Source: an uncultured virus (IMG/VR IMGVR_UViG_3300022660_001620) (lineage: Duplodnaviria; Heunggongvirae; Uroviricota; Caudoviricetes). Taken from it: a stretch of 64,000 nucleotides of DNA. Positions 4,912 through 24,176 of the stretch are shown here, in pieces. How positions within the stretch are numbered: the first letter of the stretch is position 1; every line of letters starts with the position of its first letter. A model generated the notes under the pieces. It was not told the DNA's origin. It saw only the letters and a list, made by a program, of their open reading frames with translations, and made no database searches. The stretch lies in IMG/VR virus record IMGVR_UViG_3300022660_001620; one strand, written 5' to 3'. The position numbers and the translations under genes were made by a program.

Positions 4912-4930
4912 AACTGAATATGAAATATCA

Positions 4931-4960
4931 GAGAAGTCACCGTTCGGTGACTTTTTCTTT
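4931..4960 (+). terminator. Terminator-like hairpin
   Basis: GAAGTCACC-GTTC-GGTGACTTT followed by T run. Confidence 0.55.
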
Positions 4961-4980
4961 TGGAAAGGATGTGATGGGAT

Positions 4981-6375
4981 ATGGCTGCAACCCGATTGAT
5001 TGCTCTCCATGTGAACAAGGGAAAAACGGTCGCTCAGTGTCTGGCTGATCGAACCGACTATTCGCAGAATGCGGCAAAGACTAATGATGGTGAGTTCATA
5101 AGTTCATTTGAGTGCGATCCCAAAACCGCTGATGAAGAATTTCTTCTTTCAAAAAGGCAGTACCAACACAAAACTGGCAGGCAGCAGAAAAACGATACAA
5201 TCGCCTACCAGATTCGCCAGTCTTTCAAACCCGGCGAAGTTACACCGGAGGAAGCAAACCAAGTCGGATATGAAACGGCAATGCGCTGGACAAAGGGTAA
5301 ACACGCTTTTATCGTGGCAACCCATATCGACAAGGCTCATATACACAACCACATCATTTATAACTCAACGACGGTTGATGGTTCCCGGAAGTTTGATAAC
5401 TTCTTCCTGTCTGGGCTTGCAGTTCAGAAACTCAGTGACCGTGTTTGTGCAGAGCATGGACTTTCCATCATCACGCCCAAGCCCTATCGTGAAAGAGTTA
5501 AGCGAACAGACTATCCCAAGCGGCGCAGTCAGCGTGATGATCTGTGCGAAGCTATCGACAATGTTCTGAAAGAAAAACCAAAGGATTTCGCAGAGTTTTT
5601 GCAATCCCTCTCTGCTATGGGCTATGAGTTCAAGGACGGTAAGCAACCGGCGTTCAAGGGAAAAGGACAGAAACGATTTATCCGTCTGCGCTCCCTGGGC
5701 GACGGTTACAGTAAAGAAGAACTTCGTGCAGTGATCTCTGGTAAGAGTCTGCATAAGACAAATTTCCGCAAAGCGCAGCCGAAACAGTTCAACTTGCTCA
5801 TTGACATCGAATCCAAAGTGGCTGAAGGAAAATCTGTCGGCTACGAAAAATGGGCAAAGAAGTTCAATCGAAAAGAAGCTGCCCGTACCGTATGCCTTTT
5901 GAAAGAAAAAGGCATTGGGAATTACGAGGATCTGGTTGCCCTGACAGATAAATTATCTTCCCGCTTTTCGGAGCTTTCTGATTCTATCAAGGACTCAGAA
6001 AAAAGAGTTATTCAGCTTCAGGCGTTGTTGGAACACATGGACAATTATTCCGCAACAAGACAAACCTATGTGGAATACCGCAAAGCCGGTTACAGCAAAA
6101 AGTTTTTCGAGGAGCATCGTCAGGAGATTACACTTCACAAGGCCGCAAAGAAAGCCTTTGATGAATTAAATCTGACGAAGCTCCCACTCCGCAAATCGGT
6201 GTATGAGGAAATTCATCAGCTGACAGTCCAAAAGAAAAAGGACTACGCAGAATACCGTCAGGTCAAGAAAGATATGCAGGAATATCTGATTGCCAAGAAA
6301 ACTGTCGAGACGATTCTGAACATCGACAAAAAGAAAGAGCAGGAAAAAGAACAAGAAAAGAAAACTGTTCGATAA
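4981..6375 (+). CDS. Relaxase/mobilisation nuclease (MOBP-type)
   Basis: MAATRLIALH, AYQIRQSFKPGE, HUH motif HIDKAHIHNHII. Confidence 0.9.
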   Translation: MAATRLIALHVNKGKTVAQCLADRTDYSQNAAKTNDGEFISSFECDPKTADEEFLLSKRQYQHKTGRQQKNDTIAYQIRQSFKPGEVTPEEANQVGYETAMRWTKGKHAFIVATHIDKAHIHNHIIYNSTTVDGSRKFDNFFLSGLAVQKLSDRVCAEHGLSIITPKPYRERVKRTDYPKRRSQRDDLCEAIDNVLKEKPKDFAEFLQSLSAMGYEFKDGKQPAFKGKGQKRFIRLRSLGDGYSKEELRAVISGKSLHKTNFRKAQPKQFNLLIDIESKVAEGKSVGYEKWAKKFNRKEAARTVCLLKEKGIGNYEDLVALTDKLSSRFSELSDSIKDSEKRVIQLQALLEHMDNYSATRQTYVEYRKAGYSKKFFEEHRQEITLHKAAKKAFDELNLTKLPLRKSVYEEIHQLTVQKKKDYAEYRQVKKDMQEYLIAKKTVETILNIDKKKEQEKEQEKKTVR

Positions 6376-6431
6376 AGAAATTGCCGTCGTTATTTCTCCA
6401 TCTGGAGCGATAGCGGCGACAGTCTTTTTTT
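6376..6431. terminator. Bidirectional terminator-like hairpin between convergent genes
   Basis: TTGCCGTCGTTAT...ATAGCGGCGACAG flanked by A and T runs. Confidence 0.45.
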
Positions 6432-7101
6432 ATTCGTACCTTGGCGGACAATAGAAAATCAGTAAGTCCAACTCAATTTCTTCTGGGTTATCTTTGTTTT
6501 CTCGTCGATCAATGTCGATGTAATAATCGCCAAAAGTAAAAGCGGTGATATTTTCTTCAAACAGTCGAAATTCAAGCGTTTCAAAATTGATAACTCCGAT
6601 TCCATAAGGCTCATCCCATGCTTCGTTCATAATTGTAGTTAAGCAATCTTGGCAGAGCATAGACTCTATGCTATTTTTGTCTACAGAATCATTGGATTTG
6701 AGATAAACATGAACATCAGCATATCCTCGGTCTGGATTAGCATTAACGCTGGTTGAGATTCCATCTTCACCGAAACTGTTATGTGTTATGCTCATGTGTC
6801 CTGCGGCTTCTTCAATCAAGTTTCCATAGTCATCGTAGCGGTTAATCGCTACCGGAGACATGTCGAAGTTGTTGATGCAGATGATACCGACATTGTTTTG
6901 TCCTGCATAAGCAGGTAAGAGTGTTTTTCCTTGCTTGCTGCATAGCCAGCAGTTCTCTTTTTCAATCTTGGATGTGTAAATCACTTCCTCTTTTTCTTCT
7001 GCATCGTATTTTACTTGAGTGCCGGAGTCAGGAAGTTCCGATTTAGAGCATCCGGTTAGAGCCAATAGTAAGCAAAATAAAAAAATGAGTTTTCTTTTCA
7101 T
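6430..7101 (-). CDS. Lipoprotein of unknown function
   Basis: MKRKLIFLFCLLLALTGC lipobox; two CxxC motifs. Confidence 0.75.
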   Translation of the reverse strand: MKRKLIFLFCLLLALTGCSKSELPDSGTQVKYDAEEKEEVIYTSKIEKENCWLCSKQGKTLLPAYAGQNNVGIICINNFDMSPVAINRYDDYGNLIEEAAGHMSITHNSFGEDGISTSVNANPDRGYADVHVYLKSNDSVDKNSIESMLCQDCLTTIMNEAWDEPYGIGVINFETLEFRLFEENITAFTFGDYYIDIDRRENKDNPEEIELDLLIFYCPPRYE

Positions 7102-7120
7102 AAGGATTCCTCGCATGAGT

Positions 7121-7585
7121 TTATTTTGCCAGATTGATAATCTGTAAGCCTTTCTTTTCAGCATAACGCAAGGTAGTATAGGCTCCACCAAAATCTCTAT
7201 AAACAAATGCCACTAACCAATCGCTTTTCTCAACCATCCAACGGTTTCTCTTTCCAATAGCAGATTTGTAATGGACACCGGCAAGCTCGATAGGAACAAC
7301 TATATCATCATAGCTCGCTTCATAGAAATCTTTATTATCATTAAGTTCTTGTGTGAGATACGGCAAGACAATCTCTAAGCTGATCTGTTTGTTAGGAAAA
7401 TTCTTCTTGGCTTTGCGTACTGCGGAAGAACACATACCGTCAAAATCACCCATCCCTCCAACAAGGAATCTGAAGCTGTCATCGCATTCGATAATTTTTG
7501 AAATAGCTTCGTCCAAGCTGTCAGAAATATTTGTTTGATATACTTCTCTGTGACCGGCAAAAGTACATACCGTCACATTTCTCAC
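7121..7585 (-). CDS. SLOG-superfamily (DUF1273/YspA-like) protein
   Basis: CTFAGHR, GGMGDFD, RNRWMVEKSD, GGAYTT. Confidence 0.75.
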   Translation of the reverse strand: MRNVTVCTFAGHREVYQTNISDSLDEAISKIIECDDSFRFLVGGMGDFDGMCSSAVRKAKKNFPNKQISLEIVLPYLTQELNDNKDFYEASYDDIVVPIELAGVHYKSAIGKRNRWMVEKSDWLVAFVYRDFGGAYTTLRYAEKKGLQIINLAK

Positions 7586-7693: not shown

Positions 7694-7795
7694 GGGGATT
7701 GGGGATGCTGCCCCAACAAGCAAATTTTCACGATTACCTCGAATGAGATAATCGTGAAAATAGGGGAAGTGGTACCACTTCCCACTGCTTGCCAA
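7694..7795 (+). other. Putative oriT: three inverted repeats followed by a GCTTG^CCA nic-like site
   Basis: TTGGGG..CCCCAA; 13-bp IR ATTTTCACGATTA/TAATCGTGAAAAT; perfect 20-bp palindrome GGGAAGTGGTACCACTTCCC 7764-7783; GCTTGCCA 7787-7794 resembles pC221-type MOBP nic. Confidence 0.6.
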
Positions 7796-7801
7796 TTTGT
7801 G

Positions 7802-8278
7802 TTAGAGAAGAAAAAGCAATGCTCCTAATATTATGCCTGCGCATCCTAAAACTCCACCAAGGAAAGAGGATTTATATGTAATGCCGCCCAGTTTATCTAT
7901 CGTGATTTCAAAAAAGATGTATGCAAATAGCGGTATTATCATTACTTGCAATCCAAGCATAGATAATAATTTATTGCCAAAACCCCATGTGGAATAATTA
8001 TTAGCCAAATCGTTAAGTAAGAAAAGTAGATAATTTGCCGCAACTATTGATCGTAATAAATTCCAACCTGTGAACCAATATACGAGACGCTTAGAATACT
8101 TTTTTATGATTGGCAAAACCTCAATCAATATTACTAACAAAAAGAAAGCATATATTCCGGCTTTTATTGCAAACCAATTCTGAGTAATCCACAGAGTTGC
8201 GCTAAGTGCAAGTGAATCCGCACACAAAGATATTACAAAAAACAAAATAAATAATAATTCAAAAGATATGATGATCAT
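7802..8278 (-). CDS. Multi-pass membrane protein
   Basis: About five hydrophobic segments; last gene of the AT-rich operon. Confidence 0.65.
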   Translation of the reverse strand: MIIISFELLFILFFVISLCADSLALSATLWITQNWFAIKAGIYAFFLLVILIEVLPIIKKYSKRLVYWFTGWNLLRSIVAANYLLFLLNDLANNYSTWGFGNKLLSMLGLQVMIIPLFAYIFFEITIDKLGGITYKSSFLGGVLGCAGIILGALLFLL

Positions 8279-8299
8279 TTCTTCTTACCTGTCATATAA

Positions 8300-9418
8300 T
8301 TAATCATTGTTATCTAATAAGAGATTTTTAAGGTTGTTATTTACAAGAATATCACTATTAAAAAGGATTTTGCTCAGGCTAAAAATGAGCTGAGCTTGTT
8401 TTCTTAATCCCATTTCTCGAAATGTTCGTGACATTGAGATAATTGATTTTATTTTTGCTTTATCAAAATCTTCTAAAGTTTTGGCATCTGAGGAAGTAAC
8501 AATATCATAAATATTTTCGATCAATTCTTCACGTTCGTCTACAGACATTGCTTTAATCCACGAGTTAATAATTTTTTCAAACTGCTTTCCAGAAAGAGTT
8601 CTGGAATTATCATAAACAAAATGTTTACCAGAAACTATCCATGAAAATGGATTATGTTGTAAAAGAGACGGACTGGAACTGCGTATAATTGTATAAGTAT
8701 CATGTTCCATTAGAACACCTACAATAGATGATTCTGGGACAAAAGATTGTATTTTCATTCTAATGTCAAGATAGTAATCTGCATTCAAAAAATTTTCATT
8801 AAAACCAGGTGCATCATTGCTAAAAATGTTTATGATACGCTTTTTATGTTCAGAGGAGAGATGTGCGCTTGCCCAAATGGACAAATTACCACCTTTGGAA
8901 TGACCGCCTAAACGTAATGGAAGGTCAATTTCTTGAGCAATCGACTCAACATATTTTGCGGCTTCAAGCTGAGACGGAATACCATCAATAAAACACATAT
9001 TGAGGTCTTCTTTCCATCCAACCAAGGTATTATCTGTCCCTCTGTATGATATAAATGCTGTTGTATCTTGAAGTATAAATGTAACAGCTGCGAATTGTAT
9101 TTCTAATTTCTCATCTGTAATGTCAACAAATTTAAACACTCCCATATCTCTGTAACGTTCAGCGGTTGCAGCTTTATTGGCTAAGGCTACAACATCTTCC
9201 ATTATAATTCCTGGACCATCAAATTTTTGTTCGTCAGGCATTGAATTTATTTTTTCTACAGCATCTCTAAAGAATATAATCTCATCCTTTACACATGAAA
9301 AATCCAGATATGCAAATATGGAAAGTATTAGTGCATCAATTTCGTTAAATGCACTCTGCTGAAAAGATAAGTCCCCTCGCCACTCTATATAATCAAAAAC
9401 ATCAGATTTTTTTCCCAT
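8300..9418 (-). CDS. DUF2974 (Mbeg1-like) alpha/beta-hydrolase/lipase
   Basis: YRGTD..LVGWKED, GHSKGGN, DAPGF, QHNPFSW. Confidence 0.85.
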   Translation of the reverse strand: MGKKSDVFDYIEWRGDLSFQQSAFNEIDALILSIFAYLDFSCVKDEIIFFRDAVEKINSMPDEQKFDGPGIIMEDVVALANKAATAERYRDMGVFKFVDITDEKLEIQFAAVTFILQDTTAFISYRGTDNTLVGWKEDLNMCFIDGIPSQLEAAKYVESIAQEIDLPLRLGGHSKGGNLSIWASAHLSSEHKKRIINIFSNDAPGFNENFLNADYYLDIRMKIQSFVPESSIVGVLMEHDTYTIIRSSSPSLLQHNPFSWIVSGKHFVYDNSRTLSGKQFEKIINSWIKAMSVDEREELIENIYDIVTSSDAKTLEDFDKAKIKSIISMSRTFREMGLRKQAQLIFSLSKILFNSDILVNNNLKNLLLDNND

Positions 9419-9446
9419 TTACGCTCCTTTGTGCAAGTTAGAAGGA

Positions 9447-9542
9447 TTAGTTGTTATGATGAATAAACAATGTAATAAGACCGGCAATGATTGCCAATAC
9501 CATGCCGATGCTTCCTATGACTTTCCATTTGGACTTATTCAT
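9447..9542 (-). CDS. 31-aa single-TM peptide (not in the ORF track)
   Basis: MNKSKWKVIGSIGMVLAIIAGLITLFIHHNN*; GGAGGAG RBS; start overlaps the patatin 3' end. Confidence 0.6.
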   Translation of the reverse strand: MNKSKWKVIGSIGMVLAIIAGLITLFIHHNN

Positions 9543-10413
9543 GTATTTCTCCTCCTTCAGTTATTTTGTCATGGCGGATGATTTTTTTTGCAAGTTTATT
9601 TAGATTAGTCACAATTACATCGCCAGTTATTCTTACAGTTCTATGACTACTATTAGTAGCATTAATTTCAGCAATTCTATTATGTATAAAATCCAAATCG
9701 TCAAAACCATTTGAGAAGATAAATGTCATAATCTCCTTGGTTCTTCTATATCCTTCATTTATCATTCGTATAATAGAATCGTGTTGGATAAAAACCGAGT
9801 TTGATACAATCTTTTTATCTGGGAATGTTAGCCTGATAACTTTTTTGTCAGAGTCAACATCTTCAAAGATGTAATTGACATCATCAAAATAGATGCAAAT
9901 TACATAATCCAAATGTTCTTTTAGAACGGGATAAACTGGAATATTATCGACGACTGCACCGTCGTAAAGAGATTTCGTTCCGATTTTCACTCCTCTATTA
10001 TAAAATGGCATTGCAACACTTGCGCACAAATATTGTTGCATATCCGCTGGCACAATCGAAGAAAAATCATAGTATTCAAGTTCTCTGCTTGAAAGATCAA
10101 GTAATGGAACATAAAATGTGTTTTCAATATTCTTATCTACTACAATATTTTCAATAATTTCTTGCAGAAATGTACTTTTCAATACAGATGTAATAAATCG
10201 TTTATTACCTTCAAGATTAACATTTTCCCAAATATTCTTTGCTTTTTCTAAATTGTCGGTTAGAAAAGCATATGTATTCAAAGTGCCAATTGAAGCAGCA
10301 CTGACATATTCAAAGTCGGAAGGAAGAAAGAACTCACTAATTGCAGTTAAAGCACCAATCTGGTAAGCACCCTTTCCCATTCCTCCCGATAATACTAATC
10401 CTATATGTTTCAT
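9535..10413 (-). CDS. Patatin-like phospholipase
   Basis: LVLSGGMGKGAYQIG, AASIG nucleophile, ASVAMP, DGA. Confidence 0.85.
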   Translation of the reverse strand: MKHIGLVLSGGMGKGAYQIGALTAISEFFLPSDFEYVSAASIGTLNTYAFLTDNLEKAKNIWENVNLEGNKRFITSVLKSTFLQEIIENIVVDKNIENTFYVPLLDLSSRELEYYDFSSIVPADMQQYLCASVAMPFYNRGVKIGTKSLYDGAVVDNIPVYPVLKEHLDYVICIYFDDVNYIFEDVDSDKKVIRLTFPDKKIVSNSVFIQHDSIIRMINEGYRRTKEIMTFIFSNGFDDLDFIHNRIAEINATNSSHRTVRITGDVIVTNLNKLAKKIIRHDKITEGGEIHE

Positions 10414-10443
10414 TTTTTCTCCATAATCTGTGATTTGATATCA

Positions 10444-10800
10444 TCAGAAGTAGTATTCGAGTAAATTTTTGTTTTTAAAGAAACACTCATCAATAATATT
10501 GAATTTTGCCCATGTATCACTTTCAAAGCGATATACAATAAAGTCGTTATCTCCGGTATCAAAAAGCGGAAGAATCTTTAATGTGCTAAAATCAACATGA
10601 AGATCTTCGGAAGCTTCCAGAACTTCTTTTGTTGAAAGAGTTCTCCAACCGTTCTCAAAAAAGATACTTTCCTGAGAATAGGAGATAATTTTTTTGACAA
10701 TCATAGGCAATTGCATTCCGTATTTTGCTTCTATTTCTTTAATTACATCTTTATTTTCTGATTGATTTTTCAGCTGTAATATAAACTCTTTCCCAGTCAT
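10444..10800 (-). CDS. SMI1/KNR4 (SUKH) family immunity protein
   Basis: IKEIEAKYGMQLP...ILPLFDTGDNDFIVY; directly after the HNH toxin gene. Confidence 0.75.
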   Translation of the reverse strand: MTGKEFILQLKNQSENKDVIKEIEAKYGMQLPMIVKKIISYSQESIFFENGWRTLSTKEVLEASEDLHVDFSTLKILPLFDTGDNDFIVYRFESDTWAKFNIIDECFFKNKNLLEYYF

Positions 10801-10808
10801 AGCCTACC

Positions 10809-11456
10809 TCACAACATTTTATCTAATTTACTATAAGGACTATCAGGAGCATGAACCCCCTGCTTATCATAATGTTCATTTGCATGAAGTGGCGTAATAT
10901 TCGAAGCTTCATTTTTTCCACCCATGCCAAGTGGCTGAATATGATGGGCATCATAATCTCCACCCGCTTTTCTTATCATTTTCCCGTTCGATGAATATAC
11001 ATCGTTATCGTATTTGGGCCATGGTTGTCCATGTTCTTCAGCCCATTGTTTCTTTAAATCTGATTTTTTATCATCAAACTCATCACGTTTAGCAGCGGTT
11101 TCCTCTGGTGACAATTTCTTAAGATCTCTTGACTCAAAAGGGCGATCCTTAATAGTATCAGGGCAATCGGAACGATTTTTTAGGTCACTAAAATAATTGT
11201 TTAGATTTGATTCAATATTTTCCGGTTGCTTTTTTTCAACGGCTTGTTCATGCGGACGGACAGTATTAAGTTTTCCTTTTCCATCATTATCAGATGATGA
11301 ATCAATTTTACTAGTTCTACATCTTTCGAAATTATCAGAGGATCGCTCTAACTTCCGCTTATCTATTGAAGATGGAGCAGTATTCTCAGCCATTCCTTTT
11401 GTAGCCACTCCTTTTTCAGGATTCTCGGCTTCATCAAAATTACCTATACGGGCCAT
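10809..11456 (-). CDS. HNH-nuclease polymorphic toxin with shared N-terminal leader
   Basis: WPKY...YDAHHIQPLGMGGKNEASNITPLHANEH...GVH. Confidence 0.8.
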   Translation of the reverse strand: MARIGNFDEAENPEKGVATKGMAENTAPSSIDKRKLERSSDNFERCRTSKIDSSSDNDGKGKLNTVRPHEQAVEKKQPENIESNLNNYFSDLKNRSDCPDTIKDRPFESRDLKKLSPEETAAKRDEFDDKKSDLKKQWAEEHGQPWPKYDNDVYSSNGKMIRKAGGDYDAHHIQPLGMGGKNEASNITPLHANEHYDKQGVHAPDSPYSKLDKML

Positions 11457-11483
11457 AGCATATTACCTCTATGTATTGTAAAT

Positions 11484-11777
11484 TTACCAACGGCTGAGTG
11501 TTTTCTGTTTAGTTGCAGGGGATGCAGGTGAATCCCATTCTGTATTATGCGTTGGTTTTCCATCCCAGCGATAAGCATACGATGGTTTATCTGAAAGTTT
11601 ATCTTTACCAGAGTCATTTTTCTCTGGTATATAACTGTATTTGGATTTTGTATCTTCCGTGCGTTCTAACTTTTGTTTATCTGCTTCTGCTGGCGTGATT
11701 GCTTTTTCAAAAGCATTTGATTTATTTGGTGTTTGCTCTGGGCTTTCTGACTCTTTAAAACTATCAATTCTAAGCAT
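11484..11777 (-). CDS. Small hydrophilic protein with shared leader
   Basis: MLRIDSF...DKQKLER...GKDKLS. Confidence 0.7.
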   Translation of the reverse strand: MLRIDSFKESESPEQTPNKSNAFEKAITPAEADKQKLERTEDTKSKYSYIPEKNDSGKDKLSDKPSYAYRWDGKPTHNTEWDSPASPATKQKTLSRW

Positions 11778-11841
11778 TGTATTCCTTCATGGCAATGCAG
11801 TACACCACCCATCAACATCGAAGAAAGTAATATGATGTATG

Positions 11842-12825
11842 TTATTGTTTATTATGATATACATATTCTCGTAATATCCACTCATTGTTACCGCTTGAGT
11901 CGATTTGCAGTGCATCAAGCAATTTTTCCGTGTCTACATCGCCATTTCCCTTTCTGCATTTGTCAATAGTATCAGCACTGGTAAAATAGTTGCTCGTTTT
12001 ATCGTTATCTGCCGAACGTAATTGATAAAACACCTCTCCATCTTTTAATTTTCTCGAAGAACCAAAAGCATCTTGATTCATACCAAGGTTCTCCTGGTTG
12101 GAATGCGGATAATTATAATTTTCTATTTCGTTTCGTTCGTTATCATTTTTTATTACTTTCGGCAGATCTCGAGTTGGTCTTGTGCTGTTATTTAATTGCT
12201 GCCATTCTTTATTTTCTGATTTAGAAAGCGGTGTATTATCCACACTAAAAGATTTCCCTTGATTTTTTACATTATTTTTATTCTCTGGAAGTTCAGCAGG
12301 TGTGTTCCTCGTGTTTTCATCAAGTTGCTTCCATATATTTTTCTCTGATTTAGAAAGTGGGGTAGAGTCAACCATTACCGTAGGCGTTTTTATGTTTCCA
12401 TTTTTAGTTGCTGAATCTTTATGTTGCAACTTTTCTTCTCCGACCTTTTCTAAGTAACCTTCTTTGAGCGGAATCCTTCCGTCTTCTCGCAATGGTTGAT
12501 TGCCTGCATTGCGAACAAAAAATTGTTCTCCACCACCTTTTCCATATTTGGGGTTTTCACAGACTGTACCCGATTGAACTAAGTCTCCTGGCTTTTGACG
12601 AATCTGATTTTTATTGTTCAATCGCTCTTTGCCAGTGGTAAGCTTCTGGCTCTCAGAATCCATCTCAATCTTCGGATTGGATAAGATGGATTCTGAGGTT
12701 TTGTTTCCTTCTTGATGAGCAAGCTTTTTTCGCTCATCTTCTGTAACAGATGGGATTGATTCCATTTTATTCTTTGGTTGTGTTTCAAATTTTTCAATTC
12801 CATCAAAATTGCCTAATTTACCCAT
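11842..12825 (-). CDS. Leader-bearing protein with putative permuted TNT/ART-like toxin domain and an internal repeat
   Basis: MGKLGNF leader; GTVCENPKYGKGGGEQFF at aa 86-103; LKDGEVFYQL..SNYFT..ALQI..REY at aa 260-321. Confidence 0.6.
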   Translation of the reverse strand: MGKLGNFDGIEKFETQPKNKMESIPSVTEDERKKLAHQEGNKTSESILSNPKIEMDSESQKLTTGKERLNNKNQIRQKPGDLVQSGTVCENPKYGKGGGEQFFVRNAGNQPLREDGRIPLKEGYLEKVGEEKLQHKDSATKNGNIKTPTVMVDSTPLSKSEKNIWKQLDENTRNTPAELPENKNNVKNQGKSFSVDNTPLSKSENKEWQQLNNSTRPTRDLPKVIKNDNERNEIENYNYPHSNQENLGMNQDAFGSSRKLKDGEVFYQLRSADNDKTSNYFTSADTIDKCRKGNGDVDTEKLLDALQIDSSGNNEWILREYVYHNKQ

Positions 12826-12830
12826 ATTTG

Positions 12831-13121
12831 TTATTCACGCTCAGTTTCATATCCACGTTCTAACTGACGCTGACCTCTTGATGTATCCCCTTCAGAAGAT
12901 GTATTGTTTGAACGTTCTAATTTTTGACGATCTTTTGCATCCTGTGATTGCTCATTAAGACTTTTTCTTTGTTCTTCAGGAGATTTATCTTGGAATCGAT
13001 CTAATTTTCCCTTAGCTTCAGGTGTTTGTTTTTCAGGAGTCTGTGTTATTTGATTTTTAGGTTTTACATCAGGCATTTCTGCTTCATGACCTTCACGATT
13101 TCTATTACCAAACCATTTCAT
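12831..13121 (-). CDS. Small charged protein built from KL(E/D)R motifs
   Basis: AKGKLDR, DRQKLER, GQRQLER; AAGGAG RBS. Confidence 0.7.
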   Translation of the reverse strand: MKWFGNRNREGHEAEMPDVKPKNQITQTPEKQTPEAKGKLDRFQDKSPEEQRKSLNEQSQDAKDRQKLERSNNTSSEGDTSRGQRQLERGYETERE

Positions 13122-13151
13122 GTTGATTCTCCTTGCATAATATTTTTATGA

Positions 13152-14798
13152 TTAGCCCATTGCAAGCATAAGCCAAAACAGTAGTGTCAAAATGCTACCA
13201 ACCGTGCAAACAATATATTTTGTTCTATGGTCAGGCTCAGGATCGCTGGATAAGCCGTAAAATCCTGCTATTGTAGAAATAGGAAGAAGGAATGGCCAAA
13301 TTATTCCAATTAGCCAACACCAAAGTGCGACTTTTCCTGTTGTACTCGGTTTCACCTTTGAGATGACTTCAATATTGCAAATAGCCGCCAATTTAGAGTC
13401 GGAATCGTAGCAGCGGACATTACCTTTTCCTTCATAATTTGTAGATGCAATTACTTGACATCTCTTTCCTGTTTTAGAAGGATTGATGGATGCAATAGTT
13501 TTGTTATCCAGTTCCCAAATGAGGTTTTCGGTAGGTGCATCAGAAGGACTTACATTGCATTCAAGAATAAATGTTTCTCCTGTTTTCAAGCGAACTGACT
13601 GTTGCGAAAAACTTAAATTCTGCAAAGCAGGTTTTACTTCAACCACCAGTGAAGCACTTGTTGCATAGCCAGATACAGTAATTGTTGCCTTACCGTTCTC
13701 GAGTGCAATTATGTTACCACTTTCGTCGACCTGGATAACATTGGGATTAGAAATATTCCATGAGAGTCGGTTGGCATCTTCGGCATTTAAAGGTGTAATA
13801 ATTACATCAATACGATTTCTTTCGCTGCGCTTCAAATACTCAAAACGAGGGATAAGTCTGATTTCCTCTACATATTGATGTTGAATTACAGAAATCTGTT
13901 TTTGAGCAACTACCTCATTTTTATCATTTATGATAGAAATAAAAGTGGTTCCACCTTCATGTGCAGTAACTGTGTCAGCACTACATGAAATGATAGATTC
14001 GTTTTCGCTTCTAAGTGAAAATGCAGTTGTTGGGAAACTTGCAAATTCAATCGGAGTGCTTTTCCCTTTATCTAAAGAAGCTGGAATATCTGTAATATAG
14101 TAGCCAGGAGCATTGTTTTTTATTGAATCCAGCTCTGCTTTCTGGGTCGGGTTTAATTTGGCATATCTCAATGCAGTTATGTATTCCTCGATTAAAGGAC
14201 GAGTAATGAGTTCAAATACTATGTAATCCCAGAATATCGGCATTTCTGTTTGCGGGATAGCATAGTATGCTCGATTCCCAAGGTTCTTGTACGAAACATT
14301 ATCTGAAATGATAATAGGAATACGAACCGTCGAAGGTATTTCGTTTGGGTTAACAAAAACACCAATATCTGCCTTCGGACTATCAACGATGGATAAATAG
14401 TCACTTTTAGGAACGGATGAATTGGAAGGATTGTAAACCGTAATATTAGCATTTTTTTCTACTGTTATATTATTTTGTTCGCTAATAATCGCAAGGCGTT
14501 CTAGAAGCTCTGATGGATCATAGAGCGATTCAATCTCGTGATGCTGAATCGCTTTGCAAAATTCCGATTGACCTGAAGTAGTCAAAAGTAATTTATAAGG
14601 ATACAGCTTACCATAAAAATCAATTTGGTAATCATCGAAAATCTCATTGTCCAGCCCAGGAATAATATTATGGAACGCTTCCATATAAGGGCGATTTAGT
14701 GTTGTGGTAAGTTCACTGTAGGGACTGACCTTTTCTCCATTTATTGTTACCTCTGCTTTACTGGAGAAATATGAATATCTTATTTCTACTTGGTTCAC
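13152..14798 (-). CDS. Ig-like (Big_2) domain protein with C-terminal membrane segments
   Basis: LSWNISNPNVIQVDESGNIIALENGKATITV and LIWELDNKTIASI repeats; hydrophobic C-terminus. Confidence 0.75.
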   Translation of the reverse strand: MNQVEIRYSYFSSKAEVTINGEKVSPYSELTTTLNRPYMEAFHNIIPGLDNEIFDDYQIDFYGKLYPYKLLLTTSGQSEFCKAIQHHEIESLYDPSELLERLAIISEQNNITVEKNANITVYNPSNSSVPKSDYLSIVDSPKADIGVFVNPNEIPSTVRIPIIISDNVSYKNLGNRAYYAIPQTEMPIFWDYIVFELITRPLIEEYITALRYAKLNPTQKAELDSIKNNAPGYYITDIPASLDKGKSTPIEFASFPTTAFSLRSENESIISCSADTVTAHEGGTTFISIINDKNEVVAQKQISVIQHQYVEEIRLIPRFEYLKRSERNRIDVIITPLNAEDANRLSWNISNPNVIQVDESGNIIALENGKATITVSGYATSASLVVEVKPALQNLSFSQQSVRLKTGETFILECNVSPSDAPTENLIWELDNKTIASINPSKTGKRCQVIASTNYEGKGNVRCYDSDSKLAAICNIEVISKVKPSTTGKVALWCWLIGIIWPFLLPISTIAGFYGLSSDPEPDHRTKYIVCTVGSILTLLFWLMLAMG

Positions 14799-14818
14799 AC
14801 CAGTGTCCTCCTATTTGT

Positions 14819-17800
14819 TTATTTTATCTGTGTATAAATCTGACGATACAAAATGCTATAACTGATTGCATGATGCTCGAACTTCTTCGAATGAAGAATA
14901 TATTGCCGAACAATTTCACGATAAGTATCATCAATAGATACATATTGTGGAAGTGCATTATCAATATGGCTGTACCATTCAGATAATGATTCGTCGGTAT
15001 AACATTCGATTAAATTACCTTCATCATCAGTTTTATATTCAAGGTATTTTTCTGCTTTCCTAAATGCATCATTACACCCAACTAAACGCAACATTGTTCG
15101 TCCGAACAAAATGCTATCGTAACCTTTGGCCATAATGCGGTTAAATTGGACGAGCATTCGGAGCATTTCTGCTTTTTTAGATGGTAATATATCAAATTCC
15201 TCTACCTTGCTAATAACCTTGCTAATATCCTGCTCGTCAGTCAATTCAAATTGATTTATTAGCTCTGAAAGAACGACACTTCTAAATTCCTTGAGTTTCT
15301 CAAATGTTATTGGCTGTTCATAACCTTCATAAGGGTGTTTTGCTTCATTTATCTTAGACAATACTGGAACGGACCAGTTGTTTTGCATAACAACTGCAAC
15401 ACCAGTTTCTAATTTTGCCAATTCATCCGTTTGTTGTTCAGTAAGGGAAACTGAATGTCCGGCAATCTTACAATCTTCATCCTCTGGAAGTCTCATAATG
15501 ATTTTTGTGTTTGTGTTTTTTATAGCAGCTATGTCTACGGAGGTAGGAGACTGGTCCACAATAACAAAGCCTTCTCCATAAGTTCTCATTTCTGCAATGC
15601 TGTTAACAATCATTTCTACAGATTTAGCAACAACATTGTTGCCAGCAGTACCTTGTGAATTCTTAGAATTTTTCAAGATATTATGCGCTTCTTCCAAAAT
15701 TGTTAGATGCTTTAATGCAGAATTACCACGATTGGCGTTTGCCATGCGATGTTCTGTGAGTTTTAGGATCAAAATACCCATAATCAGTGATTTTGTTTCA
15801 GAAGATCCAACTCTACTCAAATCAACAATCGTATTTTCGTCAAATAAAGTTTTGTTATCAACTTCAAACTCATCGCAAAAAATTTGGCCATAAATGCCAT
15901 TAGTCATAGAGTTTACTCGTGTAACAAGAGCACCAATATAGTCTCCTTTTGTATCAGCTGAGTATTCCGAACTATTGATTATTTTGGGGAGTTCCTGTAA
16001 AACGTCTATGAAGGTAGGAAATACAGGTTCACCCTCGCCAATATATACAGAATTTAATAAATCCCATCCCTTACTTACATAAGCTTCTTCAATAGCTTCT
16101 TTAAGTATTGCAGGCATTGCTGCATACATCTCCCAGCATCCATTAAAAATCTCAACTATACGATCCAGGTGTTCCAAAATATGAATACCTTCGCAAAAAG
16201 CAAACGGATTCAATTTTAGCATTTGGTCAATTTGAGGATTGGTGCTGAATAAATTTATGTTTTTAACGTTTCGGAACTCATTGCGATATTCGCCTTTCGC
16301 TGGTTCAATGACCAAAAATGGTATTTTGAATGGTTCCTTTGTTACTTCTTCAATCAATTTGTAGATTGTATTTGATTTACCACTACCTGTTGAGCCAGTT
16401 ACAAAACAATGAGAAGTTAAACTATCAATATTTAGTTTGACAGGAGCATCTTCTTTTTGCCCCATATGGTAGATATGCCCCAGCTCTATTTCTCTTTGTT
16501 TATAAGCTGTGTTGGAAAGCACATTTCTACCAAATTCAGCCATTTCGGTAATCATTATTCCGTTAACTGATTTTCTTGGCAAATTCAACAACTGCGTTAA
16601 CTCCTTTCCGTTGATATAACTGGTAGGAGATAATGCTTGTATATGCTCCGTGTTATTTGAACCATTAAAGACTGGAATTAAAAAAGTCGGGTGCTCACAA
16701 TAGCATAGTGACTCTTCAATACTTGCAGTTATATTGTCAGTACTGTCAAAAAGAGTAAAATTAGGCTTTTCAATACCGGTTTCTTCTCCTAATAATAGAG
16801 AGCGATAAGAGCTTGCAGCAATAGCAGCCGTTTTCTTTTCTTTTGCCATAAAATATGATGCAACTTCCCAAACACCATAAGAACTGCCTGTTTTAAGTCT
16901 TTTTATGTGTCGCTCAATTTTCTCTAAAAGGTTTTCGATACTTTTATCTCTGAATTCAATCGTCAAGTTATCTGTTGTACCAGTAGTTTGGGATGTGGAT
17001 TTCTGGCGAGAAAATGCATCTGTCCTTGTACTTGTATCGGTATTGGTACTTACTTCATTAGAGCCAGTAGACCATCCCTCATTAGTTCCAGTAGTAACAC
17101 CAAAATTTAGTAACATATGCATACCCATATTAAATCCAGAATTTTTACCGTGGGTATGTCCGTCAGAACGTCCAGTCGCCTTAGAGATACCTTTTGAGAT
17201 AGAATCAGAAATACTTTCTGTGATGCCTTCAGTCAAAGTAGTTCCCTCATTGTGTCCATGAGAGCTTGTTTTTTTAGAAAAAGGAAAAAGTGCTGAATAT
17301 AGTTCCTCAAAACCATTCATTCGGTATTCTATTTCGCTGTCTCTTATAGGAGAAGCAATTATCTCACACAGATATTCGCTTCCTCGCATGGTATCAATAA
17401 ATTTTTCTAATCCTTGGATGTATTCCCCCTGTTTAGAATTACGTTCTGAGGGGAGAATATTTACATATGCAATGTTTCTCGGAGTATGTTCGCATTCGCC
17501 TTCATTAAATATTTCGCTGATTTGGCTGGTCTTAATTGCATTTATTTTACTTCCTGGAAAGTTTCCAAGAAACGAGTCGTGTAACACTTCGCTGGCTGTT
17601 GCCGCATTGCTGATTTGTGAAGCTCGAATTCCAAAGTAAAGGTCAACACAATCCGATGATCCTTTCAGTATCATGACGATATTTTTACAAAATGGCATTA
17701 CAGCATGAAAAACACTTATGAGTTTTTCATTTATATCCTCGTTTTTGTCATATACAATCTTTTGAATATGAAATAATCTTGTTAAATTATGTTTTTTTAA

Positions 17801-17923
17801 GTATGTGTCCAATGGATGGACACGATAATCATGCAATGCTTCCAAGTAACTTTTATCAATAAATTGATTTGCTGCTTCGATTTGAGCGAGCATCTGTGTT
17901 TCCGTAATCATACTATTTACCAC
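14819..17923 (-). CDS. HerA/FtsK/VirB4-like ATPase (DUF87-type), 1034 aa
   Basis: Walker A GSTGSGKS, VIEPAKGEY, Walker B LTILEEAHN, EMRTYG, VDQSP. Confidence 0.85.
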   Translation of the reverse strand: MVNSMITETQMLAQIEAANQFIDKSYLEALHDYRVHPLDTYLKKHNLTRLFHIQKIVYDKNEDINEKLISVFHAVMPFCKNIVMILKGSSDCVDLYFGIRASQISNAATASEVLHDSFLGNFPGSKINAIKTSQISEIFNEGECEHTPRNIAYVNILPSERNSKQGEYIQGLEKFIDTMRGSEYLCEIIASPIRDSEIEYRMNGFEELYSALFPFSKKTSSHGHNEGTTLTEGITESISDSISKGISKATGRSDGHTHGKNSGFNMGMHMLLNFGVTTGTNEGWSTGSNEVSTNTDTSTRTDAFSRQKSTSQTTGTTDNLTIEFRDKSIENLLEKIERHIKRLKTGSSYGVWEVASYFMAKEKKTAAIAASSYRSLLLGEETGIEKPNFTLFDSTDNITASIEESLCYCEHPTFLIPVFNGSNNTEHIQALSPTSYINGKELTQLLNLPRKSVNGIMITEMAEFGRNVLSNTAYKQREIELGHIYHMGQKEDAPVKLNIDSLTSHCFVTGSTGSGKSNTIYKLIEEVTKEPFKIPFLVIEPAKGEYRNEFRNVKNINLFSTNPQIDQMLKLNPFAFCEGIHILEHLDRIVEIFNGCWEMYAAMPAILKEAIEEAYVSKGWDLLNSVYIGEGEPVFPTFIDVLQELPKIINSSEYSADTKGDYIGALVTRVNSMTNGIYGQIFCDEFEVDNKTLFDENTIVDLSRVGSSETKSLIMGILILKLTEHRMANANRGNSALKHLTILEEAHNILKNSKNSQGTAGNNVVAKSVEMIVNSIAEMRTYGEGFVIVDQSPTSVDIAAIKNTNTKIIMRLPEDEDCKIAGHSVSLTEQQTDELAKLETGVAVVMQNNWSVPVLSKINEAKHPYEGYEQPITFEKLKEFRSVVLSELINQFELTDEQDISKVISKVEEFDILPSKKAEMLRMLVQFNRIMAKGYDSILFGRTMLRLVGCNDAFRKAEKYLEYKTDDEGNLIECYTDESLSEWYSHIDNALPQYVSIDDTYREIVRQYILHSKKFEHHAISYSILYRQIYTQIK

Positions 17924-17943
17924 CTAATTACAAAAATATATGA

Positions 17944-18000
17944 AAAAACACGATAAAAGATAATCCTCGCAAGTGAGAATCAATCTTTTATCGTGTTTTT
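17944..18000. terminator. 18-bp inverted repeat (terminator/attenuator)
   Basis: AAAAACACGATAAAAGAT ... ATCTTTTATCGTGTTTTT. Confidence 0.65.
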
Positions 18001-18050
18001 GAAAGTTCTAACACGCTAACTGACTGTAACGTATAATCGTTATGTAATGT

Positions 18051-18353
18051 TTATCTCAGCTTGCGGCCCTGAGAATCTACCAAGCTATTGCAAAGGATTC
18101 GAATAAAGTCGATAAGTACCCAAATAGCTTCAACAATAATCAGTCCCCATCCCAAAACAGGAATAAAAATACCGCCAATGAACATAACTAACATCACAAT
18201 ACCAGAAGCATGGCTGCCAAGATAAAATCTGTGGACGCCAAGCATACCAAAGAAAAGGCAGAATAAGGCTGTTGCAACTTTACCTTTGTCTGATACCGTA
18301 GACTGAGTTATTACTTCACCTACAGAACCACTATTGTTAAATTCGTCGCTCAT
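18051..18353 (-). CDS. TM2-domain membrane protein
   Basis: LFCLFFGMLGVHRFYLG...IWVLIDFIRIL...DSQG; GGAGGA RBS. Confidence 0.85.
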   Translation of the reverse strand: MSDEFNNSGSVGEVITQSTVSDKGKVATALFCLFFGMLGVHRFYLGSHASGIVMLVMFIGGIFIPVLGWGLIIVEAIWVLIDFIRILCNSLVDSQGRKLR

Positions 18354-18466
18354 AATTTTTTCCTCCGTATTTAGTATGATATAGGAAATAGGTGTCAGGC
18401 AATTTTCGTAGAGTATCTTACTCCACGAAGAAACTATCGGCAACTATTCACACCACATTCATTAGT

Positions 18467-18495
18467 ATTATAATGATTTCGCCTGCTTTTGTCAA
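18467..18495 (-). promoter_or_regulatory. Consensus sigma70/sigmaA promoter for the AT-rich operon
   Basis: TTGACA (18495-18490), 17 nt, TATAAT (18472-18467). Confidence 0.8.
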
Positions 18496-18688: not shown

Positions 18689-19762
18689 TTATGCCGTCAG
18701 TCCGATTTCCTGTAAACACTGCTTAAACATGATCTCGCTGCTCATGTAGCCGAGTATCTTGCGGGGGTAATTATTTATCCACTGTTCCGTCGCGGCGATC
18801 TCCGCCTTGCTCACCTTTGCAAAGTCGGTTCCCTTTGGATGCTTGCGCCGAATCATAATATTCTGGTTCTCGTTGCTGCCCCGCTCCCATGAGGAATACG
18901 GATGGCAGAAGTAAATCTTTGTCCGGGGAATCGTCTTATTGATAACAGAACGCTCCAGCTCCTCCGCCGCCGAAAACTCAGAGCCGTTGTCTACTGTGAT
19001 GCTCCTGAACACCTTTCGGAAGATCGGAGCACCCAGCTTTCTTTCCAGCGCGTCGATGGCCTTGACGACGGTTTCCGCCTTTCGATTTGGGATTAGCACG
19101 ATGATCTCCCGCCGGGTTTTTCTCTCGGTCAGCACCAGCAGGGCCTTTGTGGAGGTATTCGCGCCGCTGTAAACCGTGTCCATTTCCCAGTGACCAAAAA
19201 TTTCCCGGTTATCGACCTCTACCGGGCGGCGCTCGATGCTCTCACCAGCCGGGGCGCGGGCAGGCTCCTTAGTTTCCACCCGCTTATAACTGGCCTTGTG
19301 CTTTCCCCTCCGGGGCAAATCAACCTGAGTAAGCCGCAGGAACACACCCTTTTTGATATAGCTGTACACCGTTGCCACAGACACGGAAGTTTTGAACACT
19401 TTCCCCTCCATTTGTGCATAACCCAAAACGGCGGCAGGGCTGCAATCATTGGCAATGATCGTTTCCTCAATGTAGGTCGCAAGCTCATGGTCATTACCGA
19501 TTTTCAGATCAGGCCCTTTCTCCCGCAGATTGGCTTGATACCGTTCCTCTGCAATGTCCGGGCTGTATGCCGTGGTCATTTCCCATGTGTCGCCGTTCAG
19601 CCGCTCATAGGCTCCGCGCTTCAATTCACGGTAAACCGTGGAAACATGAACGCGCAGCTTCCCGGCGATCTCGCCGGGCTTTAATCCCATCCGCAGCCAC
19701 TTTTCGATTCGCAGTCTGTCCGACTTCGTTAGGTGTTTGAATGTCCGCTTTGTGCTTTGCAC
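18689..19762 (-). CDS. IS30-family DDE transposase
   Basis: HTH VHVSTVYRELKRG; GHWEMDTV, ITVDNGSEF, SWERGSNEN, INNYPRKILGY; probable GTG start at 19762 after GAGGGGAGG. Confidence 0.9.
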   Translation of the reverse strand: MQSTKRTFKHLTKSDRLRIEKWLRMGLKPGEIAGKLRVHVSTVYRELKRGAYERLNGDTWEMTTAYSPDIAEERYQANLREKGPDLKIGNDHELATYIEETIIANDCSPAAVLGYAQMEGKVFKTSVSVATVYSYIKKGVFLRLTQVDLPRRGKHKASYKRVETKEPARAPAGESIERRPVEVDNREIFGHWEMDTVYSGANTSTKALLVLTERKTRREIIVLIPNRKAETVVKAIDALERKLGAPIFRKVFRSITVDNGSEFSAAEELERSVINKTIPRTKIYFCHPYSSWERGSNENQNIMIRRKHPKGTDFAKVSKAEIAATEQWINNYPRKILGYMSSEIMFKQCLQEIGLTA

Positions 19763-19902
19763 AGTGGAAACCTCCCCTCTGGTATCTGCGCAGGCGGTGT
19801 CGGTTTTTCCGTTCCGTTCTGCTTGTCGCATTTTGTCTTATTTACGCCCCTATCATAATTCACAATTTCGTTTTTCGCAACTTATTTATTGCAAATGAAC
19901 GC

Positions 19903-24160: not shown

Positions 24161-24176
24161 TTCACAAGTTTAATTT

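Follow-up and report, generated by a model that had tools for sequence, protein, structure and literature searches.

A HerA/VirB4-class ATPase operon with leader-bearing proteins and toxin-immunity cassettes: a candidate membrane translocase for toxins

Gene content of the operon

The window analysed here is a stretch of 64,000 nucleotides from an uncultured virus (IMG/VR record IMGVR_UViG_3300022660_001620; Duplodnaviria, Heunggongvirae, Uroviricota, Caudoviricetes). It carries an operon on a mobile island, transcribed in a single direction on the minus strand (7724-18495), which encodes an ATPase, a partner protein with immunoglobulin-like (Ig) domains and transmembrane (TM) segments, four hydrophilic proteins, an immunity-like protein, two lipases and small membrane proteins (Table 1). 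An earlier note on this DNA, made from the sequence alone, had described an AT-rich, co-oriented cluster behind a perfect promoter and had proposed that it is an undescribed system for the export of polymorphic toxins; every element that it listed lies in place on the minus strand. The GC content is 0.327-0.372 at 8001-18000 (window composition scan), 0.543-0.616 at 20001-64000, on the prophage side to the right, and 0.456-0.481 at 1-6000, on the element-remnant side to the left. The promoter is the sole perfect one (18495..18467) among 46 promoter-like sites in the region; its weight comes from perfection and position alone, because shuffled sequence yields nearly as many sites (44.4). Intergenic spacing ranges from an 8-nt overlap to a 64-nt gap, except in the interval between the TM2 and ATPase genes, where the TM2 gene may be partly uncoupled from the remaining operon because an inverted repeat and a T-run precede the ATPase gene. 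The TM2 open reading frame (ORF) opens at TTG 18443, and its likely start is ATG 18353 (100 aa), with GGAGG 8 nt ahead.

Table 1. Features of the operon, in the order of transcription
Feature	Position	Strand	Evidence
Promoter, TTGACA-17 nt-TATAAT	18467..18495	-	12/12 consensus matches
TM2-domain membrane protein	18051..18443	-	PF05154 2.3e-10; two hydrophobic segments
Perfect 18-bp inverted repeat, 21-nt loop, then T-run (terminator- or attenuator-like)	17944..18000	-	100% complementary
HerA/VirB4-class ATPase	14819..17923	-	Pfam: DUF87/HerA 4.7e-13, FtsK_SpoIIIE 2.6e-5, TrwB 2e-4
Partner, Ig/TM protein	13152..14798	-	Pfam: Big_2 2.7e-12; TM segments at 489 and 527
p96, small hydrophilic protein, leader motif only, two K-L-D/E motifs	12831..13121	-	leader profile A3 match 5.5e-4; 42% charged
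p327, leader-bearing hydrophilic protein	11842..12825	-	leader alignment
p97, leader and about 50 residues (leader-only or remnant gene)	11484..11777	-	leader alignment
p215, leader, disordered linker and HNH/EndoVII-type (AHH-motif) predicted DNase toxin domain (about 85-215)	10809..11456	-	
p118, SUKH (SMI1/KNR4)-like immunity protein	10444..10800	-	PF09346 E=0.002, 19.2 bits, below the 25.4 cut-off
Patatin-like phospholipase	9535..10413	-	PF01734 9.9e-18
31-aa single-TM peptide	9447..9542	-	overlaps patatin stop by 8 nt
Mbeg1-like (DUF2974) alpha/beta-hydrolase lipase	8300..9418	-	PF11187 2.5e-72; GHSKG motif
p158, membrane protein, four hydrophobic segments	7802..8278	-	not conserved in relatives
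Two terminator-like hairpins closing the operon	7783-7764 and 7761-7724	-	hairpin scan

The ATPase belongs to the FtsK/HerA/VirB4 superfamily. It probably starts at ATG 17911 and would then be 1030 aa long, like most close relatives. It is composed of a family-specific N-domain (residues 1-470), a core (475-864) and a type-specific helical C-domain (874-1034), and the Walker A (GSTGSGKS) and Walker B (..LEEAH) motifs are invariant in 82 sequences. The AlphaFold 2 (AF2) model has a pLDDT of 83.2 and a pTM of 0.76. In VIA structure comparisons, the core matched DndH-C (7es4, Z 33.8), VirB4 (4ag5, Z 33.2; root-mean-square deviation 2.9 over 346 residues) and HerA (4d2i, Z 27.6), then TrwB (Z 25.0), FtsK (Z 18.4) and EccC (Z 18.2); Sir2-HerA and DUF4297-HerA (8wiv, 8j4u, 9c1m) were also among the Foldseek/VIA matches. 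No NCBIfam model reached its cut-off: the best was CedD (3.8e-31, 108 bits against 600), a 'serine-rich protein' subfamily scored 83 against 650, and seven relatives likewise stayed below every NCBIfam cut-off. PADLOC matched the window ATPase with HerA models (up to 8e-24) and with mad8 (5.9e-18). For the N-domain, an Atlas search returned unnamed clusters only and the whole-model VIA search was dominated by the core, which is not evidence of a new fold.

The N-domain carries an S/T/G/N-rich hairpin insertion at residues 215-325. Across the family this insertion spans 103-244 residues, of which 39-64% are S, T, G or N, and many type A insertions (types are described below) end in a Gly/Ala-rich hydrophobic tip. 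The Kyte-Doolittle hydropathy (KD) of a 15-aa segment at the tip is at least 1.6 in 18/82 sequences and at least 1.0 in 31/82.

The AF2 model of the partner (pLDDT 92.9) shows two alpha/beta domains, three Ig-like domains (232-481), which resemble S-layer, LigA and phage tail Ig domains (Z 10-12.6), and a C-terminal helical membrane hairpin. A partner profile matched 7z47 in the PDB (3e-33) and no PDB entry within the first 300 residues, an Atlas search with the partner yielded nothing usable, and the whole-model VIA search was filled by the Ig domains; none of this is evidence that the fold of residues 1-230 is novel.

The earlier note had ascribed a common leader, or its motifs, to the four hydrophilic proteins p96, p327, p97 and p215, and this was borne out. 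The first ~45 residues of p215, p327 and p97 can be aligned (M-x-x-x-G/D-N/S-F ... D-K/E-R/Q-K-L-E), and p96 was matched independently by leader profile A3, which was built from seven N-termini of the window and of three relatives (L001, L003 and L007) with p96 excluded. Among 1573 ORFs, this profile found nothing beyond p96 except one probable false match. A K-L-[DEA] motif lies at residues 34-39 in all four proteins, which are 31-42% charged, and is absent from the SUKH protein, the patatin and the Mbeg1-like lipase. As the note had also reported, no WXG, LXG, RHS or MuF family matched p96, p327, p97 or p215 (E<=0.1); no Pfam family matched these four proteins or p158 at E<=0.01. The window-type leader is confined to the close relatives L001, L003 and L007, and a database search with the p215 leader retrieved two relatives only, both near-identical 215-aa proteins. 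A G[NS]F[KDEQ] motif, chosen after inspection of the data, is enriched (7/254 against 1/1190). Small p96-like proteins with similar N-termini follow the partner gene in four relatives (L001, L002, L004 and L005), and p327 has 14 homologues, none with a Pfam family. It was also observed that p327 contains an internal 57-nt direct repeat (12179-12235 and 12308-12364; 74% identical, 129 nt apart), which encodes two copies of a TPLSKSE..W.QL motif.

The C-terminus of p215 matched the Pfam HNH family weakly (E=0.013), a PHROG homing endonuclease (4.7e-5) and, in two collinear segments, the Rhs toxin 8cm0 (E=0.022). Five p215-type sequences share the invariant motif DAHHIQPLG..GGKN..NITPLH..H, and the toxin domain recurs in L040 and L076, where it has other N-termini and its gene immediately follows that of the ATPase. 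The p118 gene begins 8 nt past the p215 stop codon, and its cluster partner in L040 has a SUKH score of 3.5e-4; the SUKH assignment is supported by this position directly after the toxin and by the clustering with the L040 gene. The HNH toxin and SMI1/KNR4 immunity genes of the earlier note are a candidate pair, supported by position and by the PHROG and 8cm0 matches, both Pfam scores being weak (HNH 0.013, SUKH 0.002).

In a DNA comparison with L001-L003, one conserved block spans the TM2, ATPase and partner genes, and a second, with the patatin and Mbeg1-like genes, ends at 8308. Between them lies a variable slot, which in the window holds p96, p327, p97, p215 and the SUKH gene. In L001 the slot is deleted for window positions 11724-10856, lacks p97 and p215 and retains a decayed SUKH fragment; in L002 it holds only a p96-like gene, and in L003 a different leader protein. 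The patatin and lipase genes are core genes of the subtype and not variable cargo, because they are conserved with the core in L001-L003, and neither product has a leader. The patatin cluster (cluster 22) was found in five loci, window included. The Mbeg1-like gene of L001, the closest relative, with 95% identity between the ATPases, is directly followed by a Wadjet JetA gene (PADLOC 8e-211) and one further ORF (L001 positions 14341-17087).

Types, cassettes and setting of the operon family

A word search found at least 7997 database relatives of the ATPase. The 120 best are 47-97% identical to it, mostly over the full length, and relatives are named only 'ATP-binding protein' or 'DUF87/HerA domain-containing protein'. 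A profile of the N-domain (residues 5-470, 54 sequences) matched 2113, 1586 and 859 cluster representatives at E<=1e-3, 1e-10 and 1e-30, respectively, in a library of 1.84 billion proteins clustered at 50% identity. Species-representative genomes gave at least 600 pattern matches, of which at least 532 were confirmed, and an even sample of one phylum contained the family in 7/401 genomes, centre genome included. The family is frequent among gut Clostridia, among bacilli and on dairy lactococcal plasmids. The 42 plasmid records with a match come mostly from monoderm hosts, one being from Escherichia coli, and the operon was found in 1/5426 E. coli genomes. Intact type A operons are carried by Lactococcus cremoris plasmid p158B, an E. 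coli IncI plasmid and a Treponema saccharophilum plasmid. Matches were found in two records of a phage collection and in 12 viral contigs, the window's own stretch among them; phages are not the main carriers of the system. In one 21-kb IMG/VR contig (L091), the ATPase product is 100% identical to that of the window over residues 1-1034; this contig was probably classed as viral because a prophage adjoins.

The best 80 of the at least 532 confirmed stretches were taken as the locus set, which leans towards close relatives of the query since the best-scoring stretches were chosen. These 80 come mostly from Lachnospiraceae, Oscillospiraceae, Paenibacillus and other Bacillota, with a minority from Bifidobacterium, Bacteroidota, Succinivibrio and methanogen metagenome-assembled genomes. 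Five (L012, L018, L038, L051 and L068) were dropped for want of an ATPase ORF at 1e-20, leaving 76 records, the window and 75 loci. ORFs were called with a greedy caller and clustered by BLASTP, and Pfam was run on cluster representatives (41+21 neighbour representatives).

Several operon types were distinguished. Type A (35 loci and one mixed) consists of a WYL regulator, two dynamin-family genes, a ~200-aa tail-anchored protein, the ATPase, a toxin and an immunity gene. Type B (21 loci), to which the window belongs, has a small membrane protein (TM2 or M48 peptidase), the ATPase, the Ig/TM protein and variable genes: transglutaminase-like, nucleases, patatin, Mbeg1, HSP70 and GrpE. In type C (four loci) the ATPase gene lies among GAP1-N2/M, DO-GTPase2, YidD, FN3 protein and HSP70 genes, and in the Sel1 type (three loci) a Sel1-repeat protein occupies the partner position; 12 loci, often truncated, were left unclassified. 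TM2 homologues (cluster 21) were found at position -1 in five loci, window included. A transglutaminase-like gene (cysteine-peptidase fold) follows the partner gene or the ATPase gene in 11 loci, and an M48 membrane peptidase gene precedes the ATPase gene in six (these observations involve L016, L017, L020, L021, L024, L026, L028, L033 and L047); such peptidases could process the leader or the cargo.

A ~110-aa N-terminal domain is common to the Ig/TM partner of the window and to the longer dynamin-like protein of type A (consensus MxxVxIKYNPYxxETxIxxNG...S.L). Its profile matched 61 ORFs in 58/76 loci: 21 Ig/TM proteins, 37 dynamin-like proteins and three others. Since the profile spans Ig/TM and dynamin-like proteins, we regard it as one conserved ATPase-partner domain on interchangeable bodies. 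Sel1-repeat partners (cluster 25) begin similarly by eye, but the profile missed them, and they are not claimed to share the domain. Of the cluster 2 proteins, 33/34 have one or two TM segments and are tail-anchored; TM segments are also predicted in the partner, the TM2 protein and the M48 peptidase, and by these predictions the ATPase module is membrane-associated.

A toxin-cluster gene lies within five genes downstream of the ATPase gene, on the same strand, in 47/76 loci, an immunity cluster in 37, and both in 35. The expectation of the earlier note, that ATPase homologues co-occur with leader genes of variable C-terminus and with immunity genes, was therefore confirmed. Clustered toxins are present in 31/35 type A loci. 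The toxins are WHH/colicin-DNase (23), Endonuclease_NS_2 (8), LHH (6), an unknown cluster (5), p215-like (3) and GH-E (2), and single loci have a TNT domain or a SprT-like peptidase. The immunity genes are SUKH variants, DUF6985, YezG-like and SUFU, with specific pairings: LHH with SUKH_5/6 in 6/6 cases, and toxin cluster 18 with cluster 19 in 5/5. The WYL cluster was found in 22 loci and a helix-turn-helix (HTH) protein of the XRE type in 12.

A type A leader profile, seeded with seven toxin N-termini, converged on 12/1573 ORFs, all at position +1 after the ATPase gene. These 12 matches span toxin clusters 3, 11, 13 and 18 and two unclustered proteins, one a metallopeptidase; they thus comprise WHH, Endonuclease_NS_2, LHH and the unknown cluster 18. 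In bacilli, toxins of the WHH, LHH and cluster 18 kinds carry a second leader subtype. Five loci (L060, L061, L065, L070 and L071) have closely related ATPases, a common leader and unrelated toxin C-termini. In one Paenibacillus genome (G006), two complete type A operons, L088 (G006:C1:803000-822900) and L077, lie about 260 kb apart and differ in their leaders and toxins (LHH in one, WHH in the other). In conclusion, these comparisons show that one leader is found on unrelated toxin domains next to the ATPase gene, and that the toxins are paired with adjacent immunity genes.

In the window, the island is flanked by remnants of a mobilisable or conjugative element and by a prophage, and adjoins an IS30-like transposase. 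The remnants (1-6375) comprise a MobA/MobL C-terminal fragment, a VapE-like protein, a 338-aa TraG/VirD4 fragment and a MobA/VirD2 relaxase; the relaxase (4981-6375, plus strand) and the TraG fragment (3453-4469) lie outside the operon, on the opposite strand. The transposase gene (HTH_38 and rve; 18689-19831) lies between the island promoter and the prophage lysin gene (20364-21842), and three relatives (L001, L002 and L015) have a tyrosine integrase at the equivalent spot upstream of the TM2 gene. The earlier suggestion that the cluster is cargo of a conjugative element fits its place between element remnants and prophage only loosely, given the adjoining transposase and these integrases. 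Just beyond the operon terminators, two overlapping minus-strand ORFs (6430-7585, 39% GC), which may form a separate small cassette, encode a 154-aa protein with weak YpsA/SLOG (4.5e-4) and PHROG 'GTP-binding domain' (4e-8) matches and a 258-aa protein that matches no family. The prophage carries a diversity-generating retroelement (22773-25755), with a reverse transcriptase (RVT_1, 22773-24062) and template (TR, 23997-24115) and variable (VR, 24224-24336) repeats of ~110 nt each, 90% identical. TR/VR mismatches are mainly at template T on the plus strand (A on the gene strand), and VR lies at the 3' end of a gene for a 514-aa Listeria-Bacteroides-repeat protein.

Proposed toxin translocation and other explanations

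From the observed gene content, family membership, ATPase fold, partner domain, gene coupling, toxin-immunity pairing and shared leaders on swappable toxins, it is most likely that operons of this family deploy tagged toxins, either outward or inside the cell. We favour, at somewhat short of an even chance, a leader-directed membrane translocase for toxins over an intracellular defence function; leader recognition by the ATPase, translocation and its outward direction are what we infer. A fuller proposal, more tentative again, is that a single-domain ATPase with its own membrane-penetrating hairpin, docked via the shared N-domain, exports leader-tagged toxins by a pathway apart from type IV and type VII secretion systems (T4SS and T7SS), patchily distributed in Bacillota and beyond on mobile elements. 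In the favoured mechanism, a hexamer-type HerA/VirB4-class ATPase would act at the cytoplasmic membrane, its family-specific N-domain projecting the long S/T/G-rich hairpin, whose tip many relatives have in a hydrophobic form. The ~110-aa docking domain of the partner, an Ig/TM protein here and a dynamin-like GTPase in type A, would tether the ATPase to the membrane, and a small membrane protein (TM2 here) would be part of the set. The ATPase would recognise a short N-terminal leader on small, hydrophilic, largely disordered proteins, strip off the immunity protein and thread the cargo through or into the membrane, so that DNases or other toxins are released against competitors while the SUKH protein shields the producer and its kin; the patatin and the Mbeg1-like lipase may be conserved helpers or further effectors of the subtype.

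The case for translocation draws on several lines. One leader is borne by unrelated toxin domains and adjoins ATPase genes only (12/12 at +1), the p215 toxin domain recurs behind other leaders, and the four leader proteins of the window occupy a variable slot between conserved DNA. The predicted membrane setting counts as well: the hydrophobic insertion tips of many relatives, the tail-anchored cluster 2 proteins, and the TM segments of the partner, the TM2 protein and the M48 peptidase. The ATPase core is akin to VirB4, TrwB and EccC, which drive T4SS and T7SS. To our knowledge, the membrane-bound members of the superfamily (FtsK/SpoIIIE, EssC, VirD4) are all trans-membrane translocases. The strong bias towards monoderm hosts was counted in favour, because an envelope-dependent machine would be expected to show it. 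Finally, the toxin and immunity families are those of polymorphic interbacterial toxins, as treated in the available parts of Zhang (2011, 2012).

Other observations weigh against export. In the window, the hairpin tip GFNMGMHMLLNFGVT is weakly hydrophobic (KD 0.73), and the insertion was modelled as a long hairpin with low confidence (pLDDT about 33). The partner has no signal peptide, lysines lie ahead of its first TM helix and its Ig domains are N-terminal to the TM hairpin; by the positive-inside rule, these domains are probably cytoplasmic. Neither a channel nor a cell-wall hydrolase, a WXG/LXG partner or any further secretion component emerged from Pfam scans of the window and neighbour proteins, and complete type A operons without an outer-membrane component occur in diderm isolates (the E. 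coli plasmid and T. saccharophilum). Covariation of leader and ATPase is weak (rho 0.08, reached by 34/500 permutations). In type B, the window's own, clustered toxins were found in 5/21 loci only, and the patatin and Mbeg1-like lipase are leaderless. Of the 47 clustered toxins, 42 are of the DNase type, which fits a DNA-directed HerA/FtsK machine. In 40/41 loci the toxin ORF starts within 15 nt of the ATPase stop (ORF overlaps are possibly overstated, because the caller takes the most upstream start), type A having one toxin per ATPase, and a single toxin so closely coupled is as compatible with a fixed complex as with an exporter. No orphan leader-toxin was found in five Paenibacillus genomes, with one match each; the surroundings of one match were inspected, that in G006, where a subtype-2 leader directly follows the second ATPase. 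WYL regulators, dynamin pairs and GAP1-N2/DO-GTPase/HSP70/GrpE modules occur in the operon relatives, and PADLOC matched 16/100 sampled flanking ORFs, in 15 loci, a figure without a background rate.

Much of this is what an intracellular conflict system (anti-phage or anti-plasmid, abortive) would lead one to expect, and we consider such a system a serious possibility, if on balance a doubtful one. The Ig or dynamin partner would sense an invader, and the ATPase would either free the leader-tagged DNase from its immunity protein or pump invader DNA to a docked nuclease ('HerA/FtsK capture'), with the patatin and lipase as membrane-destroying effectors. Known defence systems pair HerA-class ATPases with swappable NADase or nuclease effectors, in keeping with the DndH-C (Z 33.8) and PADLOC HerA (8e-24) matches, the preponderance of DNases and the TNT NADase, which parallels Sir2; capture systems offer a precedent (PMC10853773 and PMC12839542, in the parts available). 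The WYL and XRE-type regulators point the same way, as do the single coupled toxin per ATPase without orphans, the nearby defence genes, the patchy occurrence (7/401 genomes) typical of accessory systems, and the same operon in monoderm and diderm isolates. In type C the ATPase is embedded in GAP1-N2/DO-GTPase/HSP70/GrpE systems, for which Kaur et al. (2020, available text) predicted a role in conflict, and the dynamin pairs recall Eleos (10.1101/2022.05.11.491447, available text). However, immunity proteins of the SUKH, SUFU and YezG kinds and shared leaders on swappable toxins are, as far as is known, hallmarks of exported interbacterial toxins (Zhang 2011, 2012, available parts) and not of the defence effectors described. 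In addition, solubility sets the known defence HerA proteins apart from this family, which appears membrane-bound, no PADLOC model beyond generic HerA/mad8 and WYL fits and the dynamin-like proteins miss the Leo models, the several leader proteins of the window without an enzymatic domain are left unexplained, and the 15 loci with nearby defence genes lack a background rate.

The genes might instead be a mosaic, in which the ATPase module, the toxin-immunity pair and the two lipase genes are independent cargo on one promoter and the leader is a lineage-specific low-complexity N-terminus without a targeting role. This is improbable. The narrow distribution of the window-type leader (L001, L003 and L007; two database relatives for that of p215), the mere 14 homologues of p327, the toxins in only 5/21 type B loci and the post hoc motif statistic would suit it, but toxins stand directly after the ATPase gene across distant lineages and phyla (31/35 type A loci), p215 homologues do so in L040 and L076, the leader profile matches at +1 exclusively (12/12), spacing is tight throughout the operon, and the patatin and Mbeg1 genes are conserved with the core in L001-L003. 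Least probable of the accounts considered is a membrane DNA pump for uptake, extrusion or entry exclusion, FtsK/SpoIIIE- or Ced-like, in which the DNases would act on the DNA being moved. Among NCBIfam models, the DNA-translocating CedD matches best (3.8e-31), but at 108 bits against 600; the fold matches to FtsK (Z 18.4) and TrwB, the membrane insertion of the ATPase predicted from hydropathy, the bias to DNases and the carriage on plasmids and integrative elements agree with a pump. It leaves the immunity genes, the leaders and the TNT, peptidase and lipase cargo unexplained, and no conserved DNA-binding, relaxase or competence partner was found in the operon.

If toxin export by these operons is correct, it would constitute a new secretion pathway and, in Gram-positive gut bacteria, a new route for antagonism between bacteria, in which bacterial dynamins would gain a role. 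If they serve defence, they would be the first known to us in which leader-bearing polymorphic-toxin/immunity cassettes are gated by a membrane-bound HerA-class motor. Under either reading, dynamin-like pairs, GAP1/DO-GTPase systems and SUKH-type cassettes, three gene groups treated separately until now, are linked by one ATPase and one docking domain.

Comparison with known systems

PADLOC gave generic HerA/mad8 and WYL matches only, and none of its other models fits any component. In the full-text literature searched (subscription journals and supplements lie outside it), no paper connects dynamin-like genes or these toxin cassettes with a HerA/DUF87 ATPase, and the cluster family, which the earlier note had proposed as a candidate undescribed system, appears to have neither a name nor a published description there; PADLOC and NCBIfam agree. 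Loci of this kind might appear in gene-neighbourhood tables, for instance in Table S5 of Millman et al. or among the source data of Kaur et al.

The operon resembles T7SSb in having an FtsK/HerA-superfamily ATPase (EccC and EssC were matched at Z 13-18), a putative N-terminal targeting region on small polymorphic toxins, nuclease and NADase-type domains, SUKH and YezG-like proteins and mainly monoderm hosts. It differs in that its ATPase has one ATPase domain, where that of T7SS has three, and lacks an FHA domain and an N-terminal TM domain, having a unique N-domain with an S/T-rich hairpin; its leader is a short disordered motif rather than a helical bundle, and its partner is dynamin-like or Ig/TM. 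No WXG100, LXG, EsaA, EssA or EssB was found among the window proteins or the 41+21 neighbour representatives. As for T4SS, VirB4 is, with DndH, the best structural match of the core, and both are membrane-associated. However, the N-domain is unrelated to VirB4/VirD4 as far as compared, the operon contains no VirB3/6/8, relaxosome or pilus genes, and the conserved neighbours across the 76 loci include no T4SS parts.

With HerA-effector anti-phage systems (Sir2-HerA/Nezha, DUF4297-HerA) and the proposed 'HerA/FtsK capture' systems, DndH among them (PMC10853773 and PMC12839542, available parts), the operons share a HerA-class core, swappable nuclease or NADase effectors and location on mobile islands. 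They differ from these in effectors that carry disordered leaders and immunity genes, in the 470-aa extra N-domain and membrane hairpin of the ATPase, and in partners of the dynamin, Ig/TM or GAP1 types. PMC10853773 mentions neither dynamin nor SUKH, GTPase or WYL, and NurA, Sir2 and DUF4297 were not found among the scanned window proteins and neighbour representatives. The ATPase is not a HerA proper by NCBIfam scores (HerA_Thermprot, 63.8 bits against 800; HerA_antiphage, 51.7 against 800; helicase_HerA, 51.5 against 970).

Two dynamin-like genes alone form the Eleos defence system (LeoA/LeoBC; 10.1101/2022.05.11.491447, available text). Type A likewise has two consecutive dynamin-family genes, often with defence genes nearby. 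In contrast, the Eleos of that text consists of two genes and includes neither an ATPase nor toxin or immunity genes, dynamin genes are absent from the window, and the two dynamin-like representatives match no PADLOC Leo model at E<=0.001. The GAP1-N2/DO-GTPase/HSP70/GrpE modules predicted to be conflict systems by Kaur et al. (2020) are joined to the ATPase in the four type C loci, with GAP1-N2/M, DO-GTPase2, HSP70, GrpE and an FN3-repeat protein. In the available text of that paper the GAP1 systems are described without this ATPase, 'HerA' occurring, in the main text, in the reference list only; GAP1-N/M/C and DO-GTPase genes were absent from the window and found in type C relatives only.

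Colicin and pyocin operons also combine a DNase (colicin-DNase/HNH), a disordered N-terminal region, an adjacent downstream immunity gene and dedicated release genes, and the cluster family possibly shares their regulation by DNA damage (WYL). Release would differ in being by an ATPase machine, not by a lysis lipoprotein, and receptor-binding or translocation domains are not recognisable in the cluster toxins. The cassette design corresponds to that of polymorphic toxins (Zhang et al. 2012): shared leaders, variable toxin domains and adjacent immunity genes are all present in this family, and the leader putatively directs trafficking in the polymorphic-toxin manner.

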